Sequence record: MH359124
DNA from: Escherichia phage SF
DNA: 64,000 nucleotides
Direction: 5' to 3' (one strand)
Shown: positions 1-26,058 of the stretch, one piece after another
Numbering within the stretch: the first letter of the stretch is position 1
How the letters are laid out: each line of letters opens with the position of its first letter
Notes under the pieces: model-generated
The model's input: only the letters and a program-made list of their open reading frames with translations
Database searches by the model: none
Told to the model about the DNA's origin: nothing
Translations under genes and position numbers: made by a program

Positions 1-36
1 TTTGACTATGAAAATTAACAGCAACGAACAAATTCT

Positions 37-62
37 TAAAAAGGCCCTTATGGGCCTTTTTG
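37..62 (+). terminator. Rho-independent terminator
   Basis: AAGGCCC-TTAT-GGGCCTT hairpin then TTTT; follows the upstream gene whose stop is at 16..18. Confidence 0.6.
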
Positions 63-194
63 AAACTAAAGCGGCTAAAGTGATTAAAGAGCCTGTTCAA
101 TTGTAATACTACGCTGATGCATTTCTTCATAGCGTTCTTGGAAGTATCGATGCTGAAGCTTTACGTTATATCAACATCGCTAAGAAATTCAAAT

Positions 195-219
195 AAGCTT
201 TATGAATTGAGTATATAAT
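195..219 (+). promoter_or_regulatory. Middle (MotA-dependent) promoter for gene 42
   Basis: MotA-box-like AAGCTTTA, 11-nt spacer, -10 TATAAT at about 214..219. Confidence 0.5.
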
Positions 220-237
220 AACTGTATTGAGGTAAAC

Positions 238-954
238 ATGGGAAAACATAACACAATGAAATATATTAAAGCCGCAGATTTTCAATCCGCATTTAAAGCT
301 GTCAATCGTGAAATTTTAGAAAATCCACAGTTCGTTACTGATTCTCGTATTGGACGTTGTAATGAAATTGGGTCTATGACAGTAGTTGTTGATACCCCTT
401 CATCATTCAAAATGACCGACCCACGTATTAATCGCATCTCTTATGAATATGCTGAAGATTTCTGGAAATTTATGATTTCTGGTGGTACTGATGCAGAAGA
501 AGCATTTAAGGCATATCCTAATGTCGCTAAATTTATTTCTAAACCAAAATCAGATGCTTTGCCTACGAACTTCAACACTTTCTATGGTCCTCGCATTGCG
601 GCCCAGTTACCAGCTCTTCTCAAAGAACTTAAAGAGAAACCTAATTCACGAAGAGTTGTGTTCCAAATTCTAGAAAGTTCAGATCAGGCTTTGCTTGATT
701 CAGACGAAACACTTGAATATCCATGTACTGACTCAGTGACTTATTATATTCGTGATGGTAAGCTTTATACCCACTGTCATATGCGTTCTCAGAACTGTGC
801 TGTTGTTATGCAGTTGGATTTTTATCTCCAAGGAAAATTACTTCATTATATCGCTAACGAATGTGGTGTAGAAGTTGGTGATTATACTCATACCATGGTA
901 AGTGCCCATGTGTTTGAACGTGATTTTGATTATGTTAAAGGATTCCTTGACTAA
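238..954 (+). CDS. 42: Thymidylate-synthase-family pyrimidine hydroxymethylase, probable dCMP hydroxymethylase (gene 42 position)
   Basis: 238-aa ORF; TS-fold core motifs (PCT..YYIRD..MRSQN) resemble dCMP hydroxymethylase, but N-terminal half looks diverged from T4 gp42 as remembered; synteny 42-[beta-gt locus]-uvsX; middle promoter upstream. Confidence 0.75.
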   Translation: MGKHNTMKYIKAADFQSAFKAVNREILENPQFVTDSRIGRCNEIGSMTVVVDTPSSFKMTDPRINRISYEYAEDFWKFMISGGTDAEEAFKAYPNVAKFISKPKSDALPTNFNTFYGPRIAAQLPALLKELKEKPNSRRVVFQILESSDQALLDSDETLEYPCTDSVTYYIRDGKLYTHCHMRSQNCAVVMQLDFYLQGKLLHYIANECGVEVGDYTHTMVSAHVFERDFDYVKGFLD

Positions 955-1853
955 TGGCTATTTTCCGCGTACCTATCTTGAGTATGCGGTCTTATGAAAC
1001 TGGACAGTATGCTATCCTTAAGGATGGCAACTTCCAACTTCATTTGCACCGTGCTAATCCAGGTGATGTGATTACATATCCACGTAATGCATCTGATATT
1101 AAAGAATGTGAACGTCTTTTCCCGGAATTTAAGTTTGTTCCATTATGGTATAAAGATAACGCATATAACACTCGTAAATATTTCTGGTCTGAAAATGAAT
1201 TTGTGGTTGATTCATTAATTGATTATTATGATTGTGATTTTCTAATCACAGATATCACTGGATATGACGGCACTTTTGACGTAGAATTCAATTTCAATAT
1301 CACTGCGGACCCTAATAAACCACGTTTTTATATTGACGAATTCTTAAAAACCGACATGTTGTCTGTTAATCGTTCACTTCAAACTACTGTGTTGAATGAA
1401 CGTCAAAAAGAAGTGCTGGTTAACGCAGGTGCAGATGGTAATAAGATTATCGTAACCCGGAAAGTTATACGTCCTTCCATCATGCAGCGTCTTGTAGGTG
1501 ATTTGGCTCCTATTCATCTAGATGGTATTTTTCATCCATTTCGAATTAGTGACCCGTGTTATCGTTTTGAACAAGTGGTTGAATGTGCAATTCAATTAGG
1601 TCAACCGCTTTATATAACCGATCCAAATAATAGCTTCGACAGAAATAAGTATCCTGAAGAAGCGCTGATTCGAATTTTTAATCCAACTAAAACTGAGTAC
1701 TATCAAATTCTTAAAGGACGGCCGAAGATTCAATATTTCGAAAATCCTGAAGAAGTATTCCATCCAGGTCTTGGCGAGTTCATCTACTTTAACGCTTTAA
1801 TTTCTTCACCGTATAATATACCTAAATATGAAGATGTCGTAATCGAGGAATAA
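954..1853 (+). CDS. Hypothetical protein at the beta-glucosyltransferase locus; candidate DNA-modification transferase
   Basis: 299-aa ORF starting at the stop of gene 42 (overlap ATGG); no similarity to T4 beta-gt that I can recognise; function inferred only from position. Confidence 0.5.
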   Translation: MAIFRVPILSMRSYETGQYAILKDGNFQLHLHRANPGDVITYPRNASDIKECERLFPEFKFVPLWYKDNAYNTRKYFWSENEFVVDSLIDYYDCDFLITDITGYDGTFDVEFNFNITADPNKPRFYIDEFLKTDMLSVNRSLQTTVLNERQKEVLVNAGADGNKIIVTRKVIRPSIMQRLVGDLAPIHLDGIFHPFRISDPCYRFEQVVECAIQLGQPLYITDPNNSFDRNKYPEEALIRIFNPTKTEYYQILKGRPKIQYFENPEEVFHPGLGEFIYFNALISSPYNIPKYEDVVIEE

Positions 1854-1854
1854 A

Positions 1855-2403
1855 ATGGCTAAAATTATTTTAGTAGATGGCCCGGATAATGCTGGTAAAA
1901 CAACTTTCATTAATGACATAATGGAAATTAGTGAAAGATATGTAAAGATTGATTTCCCTAAACGAACAGTTGATGGACGTTTCGACGTTAAGTCTCGAAA
2001 TGAAGTTGGCTGTTTCGAAACGATGTTGAATTATTTAGACCCTACTAAGATTTATCTGTTAGACCGTGGATATATTAGTAACTGGGTTTATGGACGTATT
2101 CGACAAGATGCGGACTCGGTTCTTGACGTTTATGAACAGGATTATGTTCGTCTTTGCCAAAACCACGATGTGTTCACAATTATTTTAACACGTAACGAAA
2201 TGACTGAAAGTTTTGAAGACGACCTTATTACTTTGTCTTCATTCGGTTTTAATACAGTAATTTCATATTTTGAAGAGTTTGCAATCCATAACGAAATCCA
2301 AACGTATCAATTACTTAATCATGATGGTGCTAACAAAGTTATAGGATTTAATGCAAGCGAACGTAATAATTTGATTACAGAAATCATCAAATGGGCTCGT
2401 TAA
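1855..2403 (+). CDS. P-loop kinase-like protein (dNMP/thymidylate-kinase-like)
   Basis: 182-aa ORF; Walker A GPDNAGKTT near N-terminus and LLDRGY motif typical of nucleotide kinases; 1 nt after previous stop. Confidence 0.55.
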   Translation: MAKIILVDGPDNAGKTTFINDIMEISERYVKIDFPKRTVDGRFDVKSRNEVGCFETMLNYLDPTKIYLLDRGYISNWVYGRIRQDADSVLDVYEQDYVRLCQNHDVFTIILTRNEMTESFEDDLITLSSFGFNTVISYFEEFAIHNEIQTYQLLNHDGANKVIGFNASERNNLITEIIKWAR

Positions 2404-2503: not shown

Positions 2504-3676
2504 ATGTCTGATTTAAAATCTCGTCTGATTAAAGCTTCTACTTCTAAAATGACCGCAGACTTGACTAAGTCTAAGTTGTTTAATAATCGCGATGAAGTCC
2601 CTACTCGTATTCCGATGTTGAATATTGCATTAGGTGGTGCACTGAATGCTGGGTTGCAATCAGGCTTAACTATTTTTGCTGCTCCTTCTAAACACTTTAA
2701 AACGTTGTTTGGACTGACCATGGTTGCAGCATATATGAAGAAATATAAAGATGCAATTTGTTTGTTCTATGATTCTGAATTTGGTGCTTCAGAATCTTAT
2801 TTTCGTTCAATGGGTGTTGATTTAGACCGTGTAGTTCATACTCCGATTCAATCTGTCGAACAACTTAAAGTTGATATGACTAATCAGCTTGATGCTATCG
2901 AACGCGGTGATAAAGTTATTATCTTTATCGATTCAATCGGTAATACTGCATCTAAGAAAGAAACTGAAGATGCATTGAACGAGAAAGTCGTAGGTGATAT
3001 GTCTCGTGCTAAGGCACTTAAATCTCTTTTCCGTATTGTGACTCCTTATCTGACTATTAAAGATATTCCGTGTGTTGCAATCAACCATACAGCAATGGAA
3101 ATTGGCGGATTGTATCCTAAAGAGATTATGGGTGGTGGTACAGGTATTCTTTATTCTGCCAACACGGTATTTTTTATCTCTAAACGTCAGGTTAAAGAAG
3201 GTACAGAATTGACCGGTTATGACTTCACGTTGAAAGCAGAAAAATCTCGTACGGTTAAAGAAAAATCTACTTTCCCAATCACGGTTAATTTCGATGGTGG
3301 TATTGACCCATTCAGTGGCTTGTTAGAAATGGCAACTGAAATTGGTTTTGTAGTTAAGCCTAAAGCTGGTTGGTATGCTCGTGAATTCCTTGACGAGGAA
3401 ACAGGCGAAATGATTCGTGAAGAGAAATCATGGCGTGCTAAAGCTACTGATTGTGTAGAATTCTGGGGACCGTTGTTTAAACACAAACCTTTCCGAGATG
3501 CAATTGAAACTAAATATAAGCTAGGTGCTATCTCTTCTATTAAAGAAGTTGATGACGCTGTTAACGACCTTATTAATTGCAAAGCAACAACTAAAGTTCC
3601 GGTTAAAACTTCTGATGCTCCGTCTGCAGCAGATATAGAAAACGACCTTGACGAAATGGAAGATTTCGATGAATAA
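2504..3676 (+). CDS. uvsX: UvsX RecA-like recombinase
   Basis: 390-aa ORF; N-terminus and RecA-fold motifs match T4 UvsX from memory; correct synteny. Confidence 0.95.
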   Translation: MSDLKSRLIKASTSKMTADLTKSKLFNNRDEVPTRIPMLNIALGGALNAGLQSGLTIFAAPSKHFKTLFGLTMVAAYMKKYKDAICLFYDSEFGASESYFRSMGVDLDRVVHTPIQSVEQLKVDMTNQLDAIERGDKVIIFIDSIGNTASKKETEDALNEKVVGDMSRAKALKSLFRIVTPYLTIKDIPCVAINHTAMEIGGLYPKEIMGGGTGILYSANTVFFISKRQVKEGTELTGYDFTLKAEKSRTVKEKSTFPITVNFDGGIDPFSGLLEMATEIGFVVKPKAGWYAREFLDEETGEMIREEKSWRAKATDCVEFWGPLFKHKPFRDAIETKYKLGAISSIKEVDDAVNDLINCKATTKVPVKTSDAPSAADIENDLDEMEDFDE

Positions 3677-4010
3677 TCTCGATGATTTAAATCTAGAAAT
3701 CGTTGATGAATCCCCTTCTTCGGAAGGGGAAGACATTCGCAAAGAACGAGTGTTTAATGAATCTCTTAAAATTATCCGTTCAGCAATGGAAAATGTCATT
3801 CAAGAGATTCTGATTACGCTTGAAGATGGTTCTCATCATATAGTCTATATTACAAAACTAGACTGGGTTGATGGTAAAATCGTAATGGACTTTGCAGTTC
3901 TTGACCAGGACAGAAAAGCAGAACTTGCACCACATGTTGAAAAATGTGTTACAATGCAAGTACAACAAGCTTTTAATGAACGGACCAAGAAAAAATTTAA
4001 ATTCTTTTAA
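3669..4010 (+). CDS. 40: gp40 head vertex assembly chaperone-like
   Basis: ORF track 3648..4010; likely start at ATG 3669 overlapping the uvsX stop; position between uvsX and 41. Confidence 0.6.
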   Translation: MNNLDDLNLEIVDESPSSEGEDIRKERVFNESLKIIRSAMENVIQEILITLEDGSHHIVYITKLDWVDGKIVMDFAVLDQDRKAELAPHVEKCVTMQVQQAFNERTKKKFKFF

Positions 4011-4019
4011 GGAGTTATC

Positions 4020-5462
4020 GTGGTAGAAATTATTTTGTCTCATCTAGTATATGACCAGGCTTATTTTTCTAAGGTCTGGCCTTATATGGATTCTGAGTAT
4101 TTTGAGCGTGGACCGGCAAAAAACGTCTTTAAAATTATAAAGAGCCACGTTAACGAATATAATGCAATGCCATCTATCAATGCGTTAAAGGTGGCTTTAG
4201 ATAACAGTTCTTTAACTGAAGCCGAATACAAAGGAACTTCAGACCTAATTGAAAAATTGGCTGATACTCCTGAAGACCACGAATGGTTGGTTAAAGAAAC
4301 TGAGAAATATGTCCAGCAAAAAGCGATGTATAATGCTACATCAAAAATCATTGAGATTCAGTCTAATGCTGAACTACCTCCAGAACAACGTAACAAGAAA
4401 ATGCCTGACGTAGGAGCTATTCCTGATATTATGCGTCAAGCACTTTCAATTTCGTTTGATAGTTATGTTGGGCATGACTGGATGGAAGACTACGAAGCAC
4501 GCTGGCTTTCTTATCTGAACAAAGCACGTAAGGTCCCGTTCAAATTAAACATTCTGAATAAAATCACTAAAGGTGGTGCTGAAACTGGTACACTGAATGT
4601 TTTAATGGCTGGTGTTAATGTTGGTAAATCTTTAGGCCTTTGTTCACTTGCTGCAGATTATCTTCAAACAGGTCATAATGTTCTTTATATTTCCATGGAA
4701 ATGGCTGAAGAAGTTTGTGCTAAGCGTATAGATGCAAACATGCTTGACGTATCACTTGATGATATTGATGATGGTAACGTATCTTATGCCGAATATAAAG
4801 CCAAGATGGAAAAATGGCGTTCAAAAACAACATTAGGACGTTTAGTAGTTAAACAGTATCCTACTGGTGGAGCTAATGCTAATACATTCCGTGCATTGCT
4901 TAATGAGTTAAAACTTAAGAAGAACTTTGTGCCATCTGTAATCATGGTTGATTACTTAGGTATTTGCGGGTCTTGTCGTATCAGAGTTTACACTGAAAAT
5001 AGTTACACATTAGTTAAAGCTATCGCAGAAGAACTTCGTGCATTAGCAGTAGAATCTGAAACAGTTCTATGGACTGCAGCTCAAGTAGGACGTGCAGCAT
5101 GGGATGCTTCGGATATGAACATGAGCGATATTGCAGAATCGGCAGGTTTACCAGCAACGGCAGATTTCATGTTGGCCGTAATTGAAACCGAAGAACTTGC
5201 ACAAGCTGAACAACAACTTATCAAACAAATCAAATCACGATATGGTGATAAGAATAAGTGGAATAAATTCCTGATGGGTGTACGTAAAGGCAACCAGAAA
5301 TGGATTGAGATTGAGCAAGAAGGCATGAACACACCTAACACAGTAAATGAAAACGCAGGTGCTCAGATGCGTCAGGCAGAGGTGAATCGTACGGAACGCG
5401 TAGGTAAAGCCAAAGCAACACGTGCTGACCTAGATAGCTTAGCCAACGAGTTAAAATTTTAA
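4020..5462 (+). CDS. 41: gp41 replicative DNA helicase (DnaB-like)
   Basis: 480-aa ORF, GTG start after AAGGAG; N-terminus MVEIILSHL and Walker A GVNVGKS match T4 gp41. Confidence 0.95.
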   Translation: MVEIILSHLVYDQAYFSKVWPYMDSEYFERGPAKNVFKIIKSHVNEYNAMPSINALKVALDNSSLTEAEYKGTSDLIEKLADTPEDHEWLVKETEKYVQQKAMYNATSKIIEIQSNAELPPEQRNKKMPDVGAIPDIMRQALSISFDSYVGHDWMEDYEARWLSYLNKARKVPFKLNILNKITKGGAETGTLNVLMAGVNVGKSLGLCSLAADYLQTGHNVLYISMEMAEEVCAKRIDANMLDVSLDDIDDGNVSYAEYKAKMEKWRSKTTLGRLVVKQYPTGGANANTFRALLNELKLKKNFVPSVIMVDYLGICGSCRIRVYTENSYTLVKAIAEELRALAVESETVLWTAAQVGRAAWDASDMNMSDIAESAGLPATADFMLAVIETEELAQAEQQLIKQIKSRYGDKNKWNKFLMGVRKGNQKWIEIEQEGMNTPNTVNENAGAQMRQAEVNRTERVGKAKATRADLDSLANELKF

Positions 5463-20515: not shown

Positions 20516-20532
20516 GGGCTTCGGCCCTTTTT
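20514..20532 (+). terminator. Rho-independent terminator upstream of gene 39
   Basis: AAGGGC-TTCG-GCCCTT then TTT. Confidence 0.6.
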
Positions 20533-20556
20533 GCTTTAGATTTCGGATGATAGAAT
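20532..20556 (+). promoter_or_regulatory. Middle promoter for gene 39
   Basis: TTGCTTTA MotA box, 12-nt spacer, -10 TAGAAT. Confidence 0.55.
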
Positions 20557-20578: not shown

Positions 20579-22396
20579 ATGATTAAAAATGAAATTAAGG
20601 TATTGTCAGACGTAGAACATATTAAGAAACGTAGTGGCATGTATATTGGTTCTTCGGCCAAAGAAGCCCATGAGCGTTTTTTGTTTGGTAAATATCAACA
20701 AGTTGAATATGTTCCTGGTCTGGTTAAATTAATCGATGAGATTATTGACAACTCGGTTGATGAAGCTATTCGTACATCATTTAAGTTTGCAAATAAAATT
20801 GATGTGCAAATTAAAAATAATCAAGTTTCGGTGGAAGATAACGGACGTGGTATTCCTCAAGGTTTAGTTACTGACCAAACAGGTGAACAAATTCCTGGGC
20901 CTGTAGCAGCCTGGACTATTCCAAAGGCTGGCGGTAACTTTGGTGATGACTCTGAACGTAAGACCGGTGGTATGAACGGCGTCGGGAGTAGTTTAACTAA
21001 TATCTTCTCTACGTTGTTTACAGGCATCACGTCAGATGGCGAAAATGAAATCACTGTTAACTGTTCAAACGGAATGGAAAACAAATCATGGTCTTCTAAG
21101 AAATCTAAAGGTAAAGGCACTAAAGTAATCTTCACTCCTGATTTCTCTTCATTTGAAGAGCATAATTTATCTCAAATTTATTTAGATATTACTTTAGACC
21201 GACTTCAAACATTGGCAGTCGTTTATCCTGATATCAAGTTCACATTTAATGGTAAAAAGGTTGATGGTAATTTTAAACGATTTGCTAAACAATTTGGCGA
21301 AGATAACATCATTCAAGAAAATGATAAAGTCTCTATAGCATTCACAACATCACCAGATGGCTTCCGTCATTTAACTTATGTGAATAACATCCATACTAAA
21401 AATGGCGGTCATCACGTTGAATGTGTAATGGATGATATCTGCGAACATCTTTTGCCTGGTATTAAAAAGAAATATAAGGGTATTGAAGTCACTAAAGCTC
21501 GTGTTAAAGAATGTCTCACAATGTTGATGTTTATTAGAGACATGAGCAACATGCGTTTTGATTCTCAGACTAAAGAACGTTTAACGTCAACGTATGGCGA
21601 TATTCGTAATCATATCCAATTAGATACTAAGAAAATTGCTCAGGCACTTCTTAAAAACGAAGCCTTGATTATGCCTATTGTTGAAGCAGCATTAGCTCGT
21701 AAATTGGCAGCAGAAAAAGCTGCAGAAACTAAAGCAGCTAAAAAGGCAACTAAAGCTAAGGTTCATAAGCATATTAAAGCTAACCAATGTGGTAAAGATG
21801 CAGATACGACATTGTTTTTAACAGAAGGTGATTCTGCAATTGGTTATCTCATTGATGTTCGTGACCGTGAACTACACGGCGGATTTCCATTACGTGGTAA
21901 GGTGATGAATAGCTGGGGTATGTCATATGCTGATATGATGAAGAACAAAGAGCTCTTTGATATCTGTGCTATCACAGGTCTTATTCTTGGTGAAAAGGCA
22001 GAGAATACGAACTATCGTAATATTGCAATTATGACCGATGCCGATCATGACGGTCTTGGAAGTATTTATCCGGCTTTGCTTGCTTTCTTTAGTAATTGGC
22101 CTGAATTGTTTGAACAAGGACGTATTCGCTTTGTTAAAACGCCTGTAATTATTGCACAAATTGGCAAAACTCAAAAATGGTTTTATACTGTAACTGAGTA
22201 TGAAGAAGCTAAAGATACACTGCCTAAGCATAGTATTCGATACATCAAAGGATTGGGCTCCCTTGAAAAGTCAGAATATCGTGAAATGATTCAGAACCCT
22301 GTGTACGACGTAGTTAAACTTCCTGAAAATTGGAAAGAACTCTTTGAAATGTTGTTGGGTGATGATTCAGAACTTCGTAAAGAATGGATGTCCTAA
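20579..22396 (+). CDS. 39: DNA topoisomerase II large subunit, fused gp39+gp60 equivalent (GyrB-like)
   Basis: 605-aa ORF; GHKL ATPase N-terminus and Toprim C-terminus in one reading frame (T4 splits this into 39 and 60). Confidence 0.9.
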   Translation: MIKNEIKVLSDVEHIKKRSGMYIGSSAKEAHERFLFGKYQQVEYVPGLVKLIDEIIDNSVDEAIRTSFKFANKIDVQIKNNQVSVEDNGRGIPQGLVTDQTGEQIPGPVAAWTIPKAGGNFGDDSERKTGGMNGVGSSLTNIFSTLFTGITSDGENEITVNCSNGMENKSWSSKKSKGKGTKVIFTPDFSSFEEHNLSQIYLDITLDRLQTLAVVYPDIKFTFNGKKVDGNFKRFAKQFGEDNIIQENDKVSIAFTTSPDGFRHLTYVNNIHTKNGGHHVECVMDDICEHLLPGIKKKYKGIEVTKARVKECLTMLMFIRDMSNMRFDSQTKERLTSTYGDIRNHIQLDTKKIAQALLKNEALIMPIVEAALARKLAAEKAAETKAAKKATKAKVHKHIKANQCGKDADTTLFLTEGDSAIGYLIDVRDRELHGGFPLRGKVMNSWGMSYADMMKNKELFDICAITGLILGEKAENTNYRNIAIMTDADHDGLGSIYPALLAFFSNWPELFEQGRIRFVKTPVIIAQIGKTQKWFYTVTEYEEAKDTLPKHSIRYIKGLGSLEKSEYREMIQNPVYDVVKLPENWKELFEMLLGDDSELRKEWMS

Positions 22397-22418
22397 GCTC
22401 CTTCGGGAGCTTCATTTT
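22395..22418 (+). terminator. Rho-independent terminator after gene 39
   Basis: AAGCTCC-TTCG-GGAGCTT then CATTTT. Confidence 0.6.
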
Positions 22419-22438
22419 AATTTTAATAAGGCTTAATT

Positions 22439-23539
22439 ATGAAAGTTATGTTTATCCCATCTCGTGCAGTCCCATTTAATCCTGACCGTGTACAAGGTGG
22501 TCTTGAAGCAGTACATTTAAATGTGCTGAAATATTTAGTTTCTATTGGTGCCGATATTGATTATATCGGTTTTGATAATGACACGTTTGGTGACTGGAAA
22601 GTTACACACCACCCTGTTGGACATCTGACTAAATTCAGTCTAGGTATGAGTTATACTATGGCTCGTAAGATTGTTGAACTAGCCGGCATCCATGAATACG
22701 ATTTTGTTGTTACTATGGAACCGACTAAACTAACCGTTCAGGCAATTAAAGACGCAGGTCTCTCTAAAGTTCATAAGAATTTTATGGCAACACCATTTGA
22801 ACCTGTATCTCGTGGCATTGTTCAAATTTGGGACCAGACTATTCAAATTCATAAGAATGGTGGTAAGAGTTATGCTCCTACTAAAGCCTTCCGTGAATTT
22901 GAACGCAAATATTGTTATATGACTTCAGGTCTGACTGACAAAATTGATTATGATTATTGGCGAGCAAATCCGTTGTTTGAAGCCGAAGATTATCCGGTTA
23001 TTTGTTTGAATGAGAAACCTGAAGTTCTTCCTGCGACTGATCTGATTATTAGTGCACAACGTTATGACACTAAAATGCGTCGTACTGATGTTGCTCTTGA
23101 AGCGATTAAAGCACTAGGCGAAAATGGTGTAGGATACTGTCCAAGCAAATGGGCACCACCAGCTAAATATCCTGTTATTATTGATGCTCCACACAGTGAA
23201 ATCATGGAACGTCTTAAAACAGCTAAAGCACTTATTAATACGTGTCCTGACACAGGTACGGTAGAGAATAGTTCTATTGAAGCCATCTCTAAAGGTGTCC
23301 CTGTAATCCAGTTAGTTTTTAAGGATTATCCTCATGCGACATTCGAATACGACCCAGATACTGTGCGTGTAGAAATTGATTCCTCTACTCCTAAGAAAGA
23401 AGTAGTTGCGCTTTACACAAAAGCTGTATTAGAATTCACTGACACATACGAAGCTCGAGTTAAACGTGCTGAAGCAGTATGGAAGAAGTATAACCGAGAT
23501 GCAGTTGTTGCGATGTGGGATAAAATCTTCACAGCGTAA
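22439..23539 (+). CDS. GT-B-fold glycosyltransferase-like protein, candidate DNA sugar transferase
   Basis: 366-aa ORF; C-terminal ENSSIEAISKGVPVIQ resembles the GT4/GT-B donor-binding motif; sits where T4 has 60/mobA/rIIA.1. Confidence 0.55.
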   Translation: MKVMFIPSRAVPFNPDRVQGGLEAVHLNVLKYLVSIGADIDYIGFDNDTFGDWKVTHHPVGHLTKFSLGMSYTMARKIVELAGIHEYDFVVTMEPTKLTVQAIKDAGLSKVHKNFMATPFEPVSRGIVQIWDQTIQIHKNGGKSYAPTKAFREFERKYCYMTSGLTDKIDYDYWRANPLFEAEDYPVICLNEKPEVLPATDLIISAQRYDTKMRRTDVALEAIKALGENGVGYCPSKWAPPAKYPVIIDAPHSEIMERLKTAKALINTCPDTGTVENSSIEAISKGVPVIQLVFKDYPHATFEYDPDTVRVEIDSSTPKKEVVALYTKAVLEFTDTYEARVKRAEAVWKKYNRDAVVAMWDKIFTA

Positions 23540-23555
23540 ATCCTGAATAGCCTGA

Positions 23556-23606
23556 GGCACTATTACACATAAGATGATAGATTATATGGTCTTTAGTAAT
23601 AGTGCC
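23556..23606 (+). other. Perfect 11-bp inverted repeat with 29-nt loop
   Basis: GGCACTATTAC (23556..23566) and GTAATAGTGCC (23596..23606); loop contains GATAGATTATAT. Confidence 0.6.
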
Positions 23607-23631
23607 CTAGGAATCTACTGAAGAGAATATT

Positions 23632-23832
23632 ATGAGAACATATAACGTGGACTTGGAACTTTTTGATAAAGCTGTGCTCCGGGAATTCCGGCTTATCCAA
23701 AGGTTTTTTGATATCGAGTCAGCTGAAGCCTTTAAAGAACGCTTTAAGGAAATTCGATATAAAATACAAACCGATACAGCTACTAAAGAAGAACTTCTTG
23801 AAGTAGCAGAAATTTTTAAACGTAACTTGTGA
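23632..23832 (+). CDS. rIIA.1-like small protein
   Basis: 66-aa ORF immediately upstream of rIIA. Confidence 0.5.
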   Translation: MRTYNVDLELFDKAVLREFRLIQRFFDIESAEAFKERFKEIRYKIQTDTATKEELLEVAEIFKRNL

Positions 23833-23844
23833 TGAGAGAAAAAT

Positions 23845-26058
23845 ATGATTATTGAAACGGCTAAAGAAACGATTATCGGTTCAGGCGGTAAGAGCACAGC
23901 ATTTACTATTCAAGGCAATAGCAAAGTTTATAAGATTTTGTCTAATGACCTTTATACAAACAAAGAATTGGCTTGTGTACGTGAATTAATCACAAACTGT
24001 ATTGATGGACAAATTCTTAATGGTTGCACTGATAAGTTTATTGTTCAGGCTCCAGGTCGTTTAGACCCACGTTTTGTAGTTCGAGACTTTGGTCCTGGTA
24101 TGAGTGATTTCACCATTCGAGGTAATGACGAAGAGCCAGGAATCTATAACTCATATTTTGCTTCAACTAAAACATCGAGTAACGATTTCATTGGTGGATT
24201 CGGACTCGGTTCTAAAGCTCCACTAGCATATACTGATACGTTTAACATTACTTCTTATCATAATGGTGAAGTTCGTGGTTACGTAATCTACCAAGATGAC
24301 ACGGGTCCACAAATTAAGCCAACATTTGTAGATAAGATGGGTCCTGATGACAGGACCGGCGTTGAAGTAGTTGTGCCTGTTAACCCAGAAGATTTTGAAA
24401 AGTTCGCATCCGAAATTGCTTATGTTATGCGTCCTCTCGGCGATATTGCAGAAGTTCGTGGTGTTAAAGATATCAAATACTTCCCAGAATTTGATGATGT
24501 TTATTTAGCCAAGGAAGCTCCATGGGGTGAACGTGGTAATATCATGGCTGTTTATGGTGGTATTGTATATCCAATCGGAAGTGTTATTAAAGAACAAACA
24601 TGGATGATGACGCGATGCACTACAGCTTATATTAAATTCCCTATGGGTGAACTAGATGTAGCCCCGTCTCGTGAAGCATTGTCATTTGATAAACGTACAG
24701 TAGCAAATATCCATAAACGCGTTGCAGAAATCGATGCAAAATTATTTGCTGAAGATTCTAAGAAATGGATTGATTGTGAATATCCACGTCATGTATTCCG
24801 TGAAATCGATTCTCTTGGTTACTCTGCTCGTAAATACATGGAAAAAGCTGGTTCTAATATTGAATCACTGAAATATTCTAAAGAACAGCTAACTTATTCT
24901 GAGTTGTACAAACGTTTTAAAATGGGACCTGAATGGTGCAACCTTGGCGTTGTATATGATATCGTTTCAGACCCACGGCTTCGTCGTATTCGTGAAAGCG
25001 GAAGCTCGTCTTCAACTATTTCAATTAATAGCCTGCTAGGTATTAGTCGTAAGCATATTGATATTGTTATTGACGATGTGAAAGGCCGCGTACCAATGAT
25101 GCGTGCTCTGAACGATGCTTTGACTTCCACCGATGCATCAACACTCGTTGATAAGGTTCCTTCCGGATGGGGTAGTAGCGTATTATTCATTAACCCAGAA
25201 GACGAAGTTGCAATGAAACTTCTGGAACGATTAAAGGTTATTTTCGCTGGTGATAGCCTTAAATTTTATAAGACCTCCGAAATTCTTGCATTGGTTAAAC
25301 CGTGGATTGAAGTTAAAGAACGTTCATCACAGCCTCGTCCTAAATCACCGAGTGCTCATCGGTTCTTTAAGAATGAAAACGATGTTTGGGTATCAGAAGA
25401 TCTCTTTATTCCGGCCGGTAAAGCTGATGAGATTCAAGGTTATGTTGTAATTCGTAATCGTTCTAACGCTGAATGTCTTGACGCAGATAAAGGTTGGTTG
25501 AACTATGATTCTAGTTTCTTGACTCGTATTGCCGATTTGTCAGGTATTAAAGAGTTCACTGTAGTTCGCCCACAGATTGCTAAGAAAGTTCGTAAACTTG
25601 GTGAAGTAGAATGCTTGTTCGAAAAATCAATTAATGACTATATTATGCTAATCGATAAAGTAGATTATGATGAGTATGTATCACCAAGTCGTAGAGCACA
25701 GCCTTATTTGAATCATATTACTCGTAATGAAGAGCTTAACTTCCTCAGTAAGTATTTTAGCTCTAAGAACAAAGAAATCAGTAAAGATTTTGCAAAACTT
25801 TCAACAGTAAATAATCGTTGGGGATGGAATCGATTCGCAGGTGCTGATAACAGAGACCTGAACAGGAAGTTAGAATTGTGTGCTAAAATTTTCGATAAGC
25901 TTAAAGATAATGCTTACGATAATGATGATAAAATGGTTATTGAATTTGAAACCAATTATCATATTGTGTCAGAATACATGGGACGACGTGGTACTCTTTC
26001 TAAAGAACAGGTCGCTCAAATCGTTAAATTCATGAAGGCCGTGGAAGCGGCCAAATAA
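23845..26058 (+). CDS. rIIA: rIIA lysis inhibition / membrane integrity protein
   Basis: 737-aa ORF; size and ATPase-like N-terminus consistent with T4 rIIA; synteny with rIIB. Confidence 0.9.
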   Translation: MIIETAKETIIGSGGKSTAFTIQGNSKVYKILSNDLYTNKELACVRELITNCIDGQILNGCTDKFIVQAPGRLDPRFVVRDFGPGMSDFTIRGNDEEPGIYNSYFASTKTSSNDFIGGFGLGSKAPLAYTDTFNITSYHNGEVRGYVIYQDDTGPQIKPTFVDKMGPDDRTGVEVVVPVNPEDFEKFASEIAYVMRPLGDIAEVRGVKDIKYFPEFDDVYLAKEAPWGERGNIMAVYGGIVYPIGSVIKEQTWMMTRCTTAYIKFPMGELDVAPSREALSFDKRTVANIHKRVAEIDAKLFAEDSKKWIDCEYPRHVFREIDSLGYSARKYMEKAGSNIESLKYSKEQLTYSELYKRFKMGPEWCNLGVVYDIVSDPRLRRIRESGSSSSTISINSLLGISRKHIDIVIDDVKGRVPMMRALNDALTSTDASTLVDKVPSGWGSSVLFINPEDEVAMKLLERLKVIFAGDSLKFYKTSEILALVKPWIEVKERSSQPRPKSPSAHRFFKNENDVWVSEDLFIPAGKADEIQGYVVIRNRSNAECLDADKGWLNYDSSFLTRIADLSGIKEFTVVRPQIAKKVRKLGEVECLFEKSINDYIMLIDKVDYDEYVSPSRRAQPYLNHITRNEELNFLSKYFSSKNKEISKDFAKLSTVNNRWGWNRFAGADNRDLNRKLELCAKIFDKLKDNAYDNDDKMVIEFETNYHIVSEYMGRRGTLSKEQVAQIVKFMKAVEAAK

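Follow-up and report, generated by a model that had tools for sequence, protein, structure and literature searches.

A putative second DNA arabinofuranosyltransferase encoded between gene 39 and rIIA.1 of Escherichia phage SF

Thomas et al. (2018, PMC6024577) described arabinose in the DNA of phage RB69 and predicted with HHpred that ORF003c (366 amino acids) encodes a GT-B arabinosyltransferase. Lee et al. (Nucleic Acids Research 2026, PMC13326640) describe RB69 DNA in which every cytosine is replaced by a 5-hydroxycytosine bearing one or two arabinoses. With two, the structure is given as beta-D-Araf-(1->3)-alpha-D-Araf-O5-5-hydroxy-dC (Araf, arabinofuranose; dC, deoxycytidine), and the base is made as 5-hydroxydeoxycytidine monophosphate (5-hydroxy-dCMP) by the ThyA homologue gp48. 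That paper puts forward gp46:47, the product of the former beta-gt locus, as transferase 1 and gp3 as 'beta-arabinosyltransferase 2', both explicitly as proposals. Here we analyse a 64,000-nucleotide stretch of DNA from Escherichia phage SF (MH359124; the window), in which an open reading frame (ORF) at 22439..23539 on the + strand encodes the counterpart of RB69 gp3.

Systems with fewer or more sugars have also been described. According to PMC13326640, a third arabinose is attached to RB69 DNA in vitro when gp76 and gp77 of Acinetobacter phage DLP3 act jointly with uridine diphosphate arabinofuranose (UDP-Araf) as donor, and the DNA of phage Thanatos, which has a single transferase, is mono-arabinosylated. 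Phages Bas46 and Bas47 are reported to be doubly arabinosylated. At second hand, a citing paper states that Bas46 without 'arabinosyltransferase Aat', a name not tied there to a particular gene, became sensitive to a defence system. The deletion phage was presumably viable, because its sensitivity could be assayed. In the work of Mahler et al., Aat enzymes are reportedly arabinose-5ara-hC transferases that add a second or third arabinose; this would agree with the role proposed here, and we do not count it as evidence.

Our analysis indicates that the protein encoded at 22439..23539 is most likely the chain-extending (second) DNA arabinofuranosyltransferase of Mosigvirus, of the RB69 gp3/ORF003c type. 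An earlier reading of the window, made without database searches (the sequence-only reading), had suggested that the gene might encode a further DNA sugar transferase, one that attaches another sugar or forms another linkage. This idea matches the proposal in PMC13326640, and distribution and copy number support it. The same reading named 5-hydroxymethylcytosine (hmC) as the acceptor, which has to be replaced: in that paper the base is 5-hydroxycytosine and the sugar arabinofuranose. The novelty that it implied does not stand either, as the gene was predicted in 2018 (PMC6024577), a crystal structure was released in 2025, and the gene was placed in the pathway in 2025-2026.

In the pathway that we favour, the phage would replace cytosine with 5-hydroxycytosine, made as 5-hydroxy-dCMP by a ThyA-like enzyme, and GT1 would put an alpha-D-arabinofuranose on the 5-hydroxyl. 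The 22439 transferase, a soluble GT-B enzyme, would then add a second, beta-(1->3)-linked arabinofuranose from UDP-Araf onto the first sugar in DNA, with its gene expressed in the early or middle period on the gene 39 transcript. The genes for these steps are listed here with the gene that follows them and the ribosome-binding site of the transferase:

238..954, + strand: ThyA-like gene, RB69 gp48 orthologue, 5-hydroxy-dCMP synthase supplying the acceptor base (Pfam Thymidylat_synt, 2.3e-15; RB69 synteny; function from PMC13326640)
954..1853, + strand: GT1, intact, 299 amino acids, RB69 gp46:47 orthologue, proposed first (alpha) arabinosyltransferase (synteny, literature)
1855..2403, + strand: nucleotide-kinase-like protein, 182 amino acids, RB69 gp45 (RB69 synteny)
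2504..3676: uvsX, following the kinase-like gene
22428..22431, + strand: Shine-Dalgarno AAGG, 7 nucleotides before the transferase ATG, read from the sequence
22439..23539, + strand: transferase coding sequence, 366 amino acids, orthologue of RB69 gp3/ORF003c and the HY126 glycosyltransferase; GT-B fold, UDP-binding; proposed second (beta-1,3) DNA arabinofuranosyltransferase

Fold and family of the transferase

The 366-amino-acid ORF, with its ATG start, is a genuine coding gene, and the E-x-x-S-K-G-V-P-V-I segment on which the sequence-only reading relied is present as E-A-I-S-K-G-V-P-V-I at residues 281-290 (nucleotides 23279-23308). The gene is under purifying selection, with a ratio of nonsynonymous to synonymous substitution rates (dN/dS) of 0.04-0.17 and a dS of 0.06-0.12 over four alleles. 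Megablast places it in 162 phage records at 90-99% identity, each of them an E. coli/Shigella phage of the RB69 type (genus Mosigvirus), and the first 25 kb of the window are ~97% identical to Mosigvirus genomes; judged by sequence, the window is Mosigvirus (RB69-like) phage DNA. The protein is 100% identical to those of HX01 and PNJ-9 and shares 363 of 366 residues (99.2%) with RB69 gp3 (NP_861693.1), the differences being T56N, V231A and T327I. It is 99% identical to the HY126 chains in the PDB, with three to five substitutions across the RB69 and HY126 versions; the HY126 and Bas46 orthologues are XAN60436.1 and bas46_0103.

An AlphaFold2 model built on an 11-sequence alignment reached a predicted local distance difference test (pLDDT) of 90.8 and a predicted template modelling (pTM) score of 0.87. 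In Foldseek, the model superimposes on 9ir0_A and 9iqz_A with template modelling (TM) scores of 0.95-0.97 at 99% identity, and a profile search of PDB sequences returned the same two entries at E 1e-168 (four chains over the two entries, with labels up to H). These crystal structures, released on 2025-07-16, show the HY126 protein in the apo form (9IQZ) and as 'phage HY126 glycosyltransferase with UDP' (9IR0); the depositors call it 'Glycosyltransferase subfamily 4-like N-terminal domain-containing protein'. Both hallmarks of the GT-B superfamily are present, namely two Rossmann-like alpha/beta domains with an inter-domain cleft, and C-terminal nucleotide-sugar binding with a conserved ribose-contacting Glu (E281; 9IR0 complex with UDP). 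The sequence-only reading had staked its GT-B assignment on structure prediction, and the model and structural search bear it out. A protein 99% identical to it thus has the GT-B fold and binds UDP, the latter as given in the PDB entry title; glycosyl transfer by the Mosigvirus enzyme itself is putative, activity having been shown for its paralogues DLP3 gp76 plus gp77.

The profile search against glycosyltransferase families suggested by the same reading returned nothing: Pfam-A and NCBIfam hold no family for the protein even at E<=10, and the single PHROGs match is to a family of 'unknown function'. Because sequence profiles fail, the classification rests on structure. The family is very narrow; a word-indexed search found 10 clusters, and a profile HMMER search over 1.84 billion representatives found 11 proteins, all of its own clade. 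In family alignments of 11 sequences, P288 and E276 are invariant and E281, G286 and V289 near-invariant, and the catalytic-type residues G20, G21, R208, K263, E276 and E281 are kept family-wide. D88, E94 and H138 are invariant in the N domain and are candidate acceptor or base residues. Two of the conserved segments are:

22496..22504, + strand: codons of G20-G21-L22, N-terminal glycine loop, invariant in the 11-sequence alignment
23264..23308, + strand: codons of E276-NSSI-E281-AISKGVPVI290, C-terminal nucleotide-sugar signature (alignments)

Thomas et al. (2018, PMC6024577) aligned G20 to Gly-15 of T4 alpha-glucosyltransferase (alpha-GT), a beta-phosphate contact, and E281 to the GT-B ribose-binding Glu (T4 alpha-GT E311), and listed G20, E281 and an Arg as counterparts of UDP-contacting residues. 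The C-terminal domain has no EX7E motif: G273 stands eight positions before E281, and the closest conserved Glu, E276, gives a spacing of E-x4-E. The description as GT4-like is valid at the level of the fold only, and in sequence the protein falls outside GT4, PF00534 and Glyco_trans_4.

The next Foldseek matches are the GT4-type GT-B enzymes BshA, PimA, MshA, WaaG, LmbT and tetrahydrobiopterin glucosyltransferase (E ~1e-11, 11-15% identity), and further top non-self matches are tll1591, BGluT and SPS (sucrose-phosphate synthase). Neither close sequence or structural kinship to the T4 alpha- and beta-glucosyltransferases (GT72/GT63) nor direct glucosylation of hmC was indicated. In BFVD, outside the transferase's own family, the nearest named viral neighbours in structure are glycosyltransferases from phage phiM9 of Sinorhizobium and phage RL2RES of Rhizobium (TM 0.67-0.71, 13-18% identity), with the unnamed entry A0A7D7JJK2 ranked just above them. 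We take these two phages to be related to RL38J1, which also glycosylates 5-hydroxycytosine, and their glycosyltransferases may be distant functional relatives.

Public labels for the gene disagree, ranging from hypothetical protein through 'DNA alpha-glucosyltransferase' (HX01, NC_018855) and 'putative hmC-arabinosyltransferase' (Bas46) to 'GDP-mannose-dependent alpha-(1-2)-phosphatidylinositol mannosyltransferase' (308Ecol101PP, OR062945). The alpha-glucosyltransferase and mannosyltransferase labels, found in HX01, 308Ecol101PP and several Acinetobacter phages, are probably wrong and appear to have been carried over from distant structural relatives.

Distribution, copy number and the order of sugar addition

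The unusual beta-gt locus noted by the sequence-only reading lies in the window at 238..2403 and consists of the ThyA-like, GT1 and kinase-like genes. The RB69 record splits GT1 into ORF046 and ORF047; the single GT1 ORF of the window confirms, at the sequence level, that these are one gene, which fits the published claim of a sequencing error. The UDP-arabinose synthesis genes, for arabinose 5-phosphate (Ara5P) isomerase, kinase/pyrophosphorylase and HAD phosphatase, are in RB69 (gp49-55) directly upstream of the ThyA-like gene and would here lie just beyond the left edge of the window. GT1 and the 22439 transferase have no detectable relation (BLASTP E 3.7), and a recent duplication giving both transferases is rejected.

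We found GT1 in 347 phage records spanning at least 14 host genera; the hosts include Klebsiella, Enterobacter, Serratia, Yersinia, Edwardsiella, Proteus, Pseudomonas, Acinetobacter and, with phage Thanatos, Shewanella. The 22439-type transferase occurs in 210 records, comprising Mosigvirus (one copy), 55 Acinetobacter T4-like phages (two copies) and one record named 'Tegunavirus' with a candidate match at <60% identity. At least 137 phage records, Thanatos among them, have GT1 without a 22439-type transferase. GT1-only phages also include Klebsiella phage Marfa, Yersinia phage TG1 and Serratia phage LC53, whose DNA would be expected to be mono-arabinosyl unless they have some other extender. 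The copy number of the transferase tracks the number of extra sugars:

0 transferase copies: Thanatos, mono-arabinosyl DNA
1 transferase copy: RB69, NP and Bas46/47, mono- and di-arabinosyl DNA
2 transferase copies: DLP3, tri-arabinosyl DNA

Gene order points to the same pathway. The transferase occurs with the core of 5-hydroxy-dCMP synthase, GT1 and kinase in the window, in Acinetobacter phage DLP1 and in an uncultured phage contig (L012; Logan SRR26937416, 376..3016). In DLP1, the order is Ara5P isomerase, pyrophosphorylase/kinase, HAD phosphatase, ThyA-like, GT1, kinase, transferase copy 075 and transferase copy 074. Copies 075 and 074 are 42.6% and 40.3% identical to the window transferase over ~370 residues, and since the identity between the two Acinetobacter copies is 57.5%, versus 40-43% to the window protein, the latter is co-orthologous to both. 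In L012, a 41%-identical homologue separates the ThyA-like gene from GT1, with which it shares a 4-bp overlap. A further uncultured T4-like phage contig (L011; JGI 3300045321, 3040..4224) carries a homologue downstream of DNA ligase and dsbA homologues. The ThyA-like/GT1/kinase core is fixed, and the 22439-type transferase is a movable add-on at differing sites. Yersinia phage TG1 (Tegunavirus) has GT1 at 64.9%, and its gene 39 junction has neither a 22439-type transferase nor rIIA; an HNH/GIY-YIG-type endonuclease gene lies upstream of gene 39 in this phage.

The second-sugar role for gp3 is supported because distribution, copy number and linkage fit the published proposal. We infer a second rather than a first arabinose step for the 22439 enzyme, with distribution and copy number as the support here, as we do the anomer of its donor and its mode of catalysis. 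The reverse order, first put forward for ORF003c by Thomas et al. (2018), would make the transferase the base-proximal (first) arabinosyltransferase and leave GT1 with the second step or some other job. We consider this improbable: Thanatos is still mono-arabinosylated although, like the other GT1 records counted above, it has no such transferase; GT1 stands beside the 5-hydroxy-dCMP synthase in every arrangement, whereas the transferase gene moves; and transferase copies follow the extra sugars. Furthermore, gp46:47 was overlooked in 2018 because the RB69 record splits the gene into two ORFs. A link to DNA that is merely coincidental, with the true acceptor being, for example, a small molecule, a lipid or a protein of phage or host, is suggested by the enzyme's nearest structural neighbours, whose work is lipid, small-molecule and polysaccharide glycosylation (PimA, BshA, tetrahydrobiopterin glucosyltransferase, sucrose-phosphate synthase), and by the phosphatidylinositol mannosyltransferase label of some records. 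These neighbours share only 10-15% identity and so give no clue to the acceptor. The gene, however, is confined to phages with the 5-hydroxycytosine arabinosylation core and embedded in that cluster in two independent arrangements, and its paralogues act on DNA in vitro according to PMC13326640, which makes a non-DNA target very improbable indeed.

Several points weigh against the second-transferase assignment. PMC13326640 marks the gp3 role as proposed rather than confirmed, and in the same text single DLP3 transferases are inactive on 5-hydroxycytosine DNA, the third-sugar step needing both paralogues. That the lone Mosigvirus enzyme acts by itself is for this reason an assumption, and dependence on a partner is possible. 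Taken further, the transferase might be an obligate subunit or scaffold, active only with GT1 or another phage protein. The behaviour of gp76 and gp77, inactive alone and active together in that text, would agree with this, as would the 4-bp overlap with GT1 in L012, which suggests translational coupling and possibly a complex, and the four chains with labels up to H in 9IQZ/9IR0, which hint at oligomers. We nevertheless hold such a role to be hardly likely, given that the catalytic-type residues are conserved family-wide, that the HY126 enzyme binds UDP by itself, and that Mosigvirus, with its single copy, still makes di-arabinosyl DNA. The stereochemistry is a further difficulty for a second arabinofuranosyltransferase of this type: the closest structural neighbours are all retaining enzymes (GT4/GT5/GT20 type), and the proposed linkage is beta, unlike the alpha linkage of the first sugar. 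For a beta product to agree with retaining relatives, either the donor must be beta-configured or the mechanism must be a different one. A more elaborate version, which we regard as unlikely, would have a mechanistically unusual GT4-like enzyme make the beta-(1->3) bond on a DNA sugar (through a beta UDP-D-Araf donor or a stereochemical switch) and act incompletely depending on sequence context, with the flanking hairpins maybe tuning its dosage. If this were true, the incomplete action, seen as a mixture of mono- and di-forms, would leave the genome unevenly marked.

The gene 39-rIIA.1 junction and expression

The sequence-only reading placed the gene between gene 39 and rIIA, and this position is correct, with rIIA.1 lying between the transferase gene and rIIA. 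The neighbouring features are:

20532..20556, + strand: MotA-box-type middle-promoter-like match (TGCTTTAG...TAGAAT), just upstream of gene 39
20579..22396, + strand: gene 39, fused 605-amino-acid topoisomerase II large subunit, upstream neighbour
22395..22412, + strand: UUCG-tetraloop hairpin AAGCTCC-TTCG-GGAGCTT with a U-rich tract, overlapping the gene 39 stop; terminator-like or RNA-stabilising
23551..23611, + strand: stable, conserved hairpin between the transferase gene and rIIA.1, with a 29-nucleotide loop
23632..23832, + strand: rIIA.1, 66 amino acids, downstream neighbour
23845..26058: rIIA, next after rIIA.1

The content of this junction varies among T4-like phages. In RB33, gene 39 is followed by a 54-nucleotide spacer and rIIA.1, with nothing between, and T4-type genomes such as RB59 have mobA and a split topoisomerase gene at the same place; the junction is clearly plastic. 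The proposal that the transferase gene is an inserted cassette survives in part. It is an accessory gene relative to Tequatrovirus, and what remains of the cassette idea is an accessory gene at a plastic junction, with differing sites per lineage; homing endonucleases are also found at this junction (T4-type mobA, and one in AV114). A recent horizontal insertion is rejected on native composition, the lack of mobile-element marks and a divergence like that of GT1. Specifically, the gene has a GC content of 0.393 versus 0.377 for the window, a GC content at third codon positions (GC3) of 0.259 versus 0.25-0.30 for its neighbours, and a codon-usage correlation of 0.90; no direct repeats flank it, and no integrase or endonuclease was found in the 64-kb window. 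Identity between Mosigvirus and Acinetobacter phages is 45% for GT1 and 42% for the transferase, a similar divergence that would fit long co-inheritance. For mapping the insertion boundary against RB33 at the nucleotide level, the spacers are too diverged.

Two relatives have rearranged versions of the locus. In the Mosigvirus Escherichia phage AV114 (L008), a homing endonuclease ORF (1..303) lies directly upstream of the transferase gene (301..1401) and, like gene 39, ends in W-M-S-stop and the hairpin. No transferase allele diverges more than that of AV114, at 92.3% DNA identity. Of its 17 amino acid changes, T56N and V231A lie apart and the other 15 fall at residues 101-191, a distribution suggestive of a segment of mosaic or recombinant origin. 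Shigella phage JK45 has a tandem partial duplication of ~494 bp (corresponding to window 23147..23640) with an extra ORF at 1494..1904 of the JK45 locus, in which the first five codons of rIIA.1 run into the sequence for the last 131 residues of the transferase. This duplication may be real or an assembly artefact, either being possible; BFVD has a model of the fragment. The JK45 record is filed under Tequatrovirus, and its locus is Mosigvirus-like.

Both flanking elements that the sequence-only reading described, an upstream terminator and a perfect 11-bp inverted repeat downstream, are present. The upstream hairpin (22395-22412) was flagged terminator-like, with a folding free energy (dG) of -11.4 kcal/mol and a z score of -2.46, and it is identical in six of seven Mosigvirus alleles. 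HY126 has one tetraloop substitution at 22405 (TTCG to TTCT), which is the only substitution in the 42-nucleotide upstream spacer over the seven alleles. The downstream repeat has a perfect 11-bp core, GGCACTATTAC (23556-23566) and GTAATAGTGCC (23596-23606), within 16-nucleotide arms (23551-23566 and 23596-23611) that are 88% complementary. It folds with a dG of -28.6 kcal/mol and a z score of -4.44, and one of 200 shuffles folds equally well. The 92-nucleotide downstream spacer varies at three positions over the seven alleles, and two of these variants hit the partners of one base pair, 23559/23603, which is A-U in the window, G-U in HY126 and A-C in RB69. Both spacers are almost 100% conserved despite the gene's dS of 0.06-0.12; the flanking hairpins are conserved elements, not insertion scars. 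An Rfam search returned no family for either hairpin, and the downstream one, with no Rfam match and no U-tract, was rejected as a known RNA family or a terminator; no promoter match falls on it either.

Between gene 39 and the transferase start codon, the + strand has no sigma-70-like, late (TATAAATA) or MotA-type match, and a promoter of the gene's own was accordingly discarded. MotA-box-like matches (TGCTT-N12-15-TANNNT) number 27 in the window versus 16.4 expected, a count reached in one of 100 shuffles, and this excess is consistent with T4-type middle promoters in an early-gene region. Because no promoter-like site precedes the start codon and a MotA-type match lies upstream of gene 39, the transferase is probably made from a gene 39 transcript that reads through the upstream hairpin. 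The timing of this transcript suits an enzyme acting on replicating DNA.

Significance and comparison with known systems

Arabinosylated 5-hydroxycytosine is a recently characterised phage DNA hypermodification that blocks many restriction enzymes. A paper citing Mahler et al. 2025 states, at second hand, that arabinosylated DNA also blocks type I CRISPR-Cas. How many sugars are attached seems to alter the set of host defences that a phage escapes or sets off, which matters for choosing or engineering Mosigvirus therapy phages and for sequencing or cutting their DNA. The value for the window is a correct label, putative second DNA arabinofuranosyltransferase.

Among known systems, T4 alpha-glucosyltransferase (PDB 1Y6F/1XV5, GT72) shares 10% identity with the transferase and ranks structurally below ~35 bacterial GT4-type enzymes; the T4 enzyme targets the base's own hydroxymethyl group for glucosylation, and the transferase does not conserve its glucose-binding histidines (PMC6024577). 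The closest fold is that of the bacterial GT4-type retaining enzymes (BshA, PimA, MshA, WaaG, sucrose-phosphate synthase and tetrahydrobiopterin glucosyltransferase), from which the transferase differs in sharing no sequence profile, in having E-x4-E rather than EX7E, in its proposed acceptor, a DNA-bound sugar, and in a product reported to be beta. The second-sugar (beta-alpha, 'gentiobiosyl') transferase of T2 and T6 follows the same logic, extending a base-attached sugar with a partial mono- plus di- pattern, but uses glucose instead of arabinofuranose and hmC instead of 5-hydroxycytosine. It shows no sequence kinship in the exhaustive HMMER search, which returned the 11 family members and was not a direct homology comparison.

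The DLP3 gp76/gp77 pair, syntenic with DLP1 074/075 and with homologues in Acj61 and Acj9, belongs to the same narrow family and the same arabinosyl-5-hydroxycytosine pathway as the window transferase. As PMC13326640 has it, the pair uses UDP-Araf on DNA and lengthens an existing arabinose chain. The pair consists of two adjacent paralogues within the cluster, whereas Mosigvirus has a single gene ~20 kb from it; both DLP3 proteins are needed together in vitro, and their tri-arabinosyl product has an extra beta-(1->5) sugar, according to the same text. RB69 gp3 and the HY126 glycosyltransferase stand closest of all. Nothing hints at a differing function, and HY126, itself among the megablast matches, also has its copy between the topoisomerase gene and rIIA.1; the three are practically the same protein, encoded at the same gene 39-rIIA.1 site.

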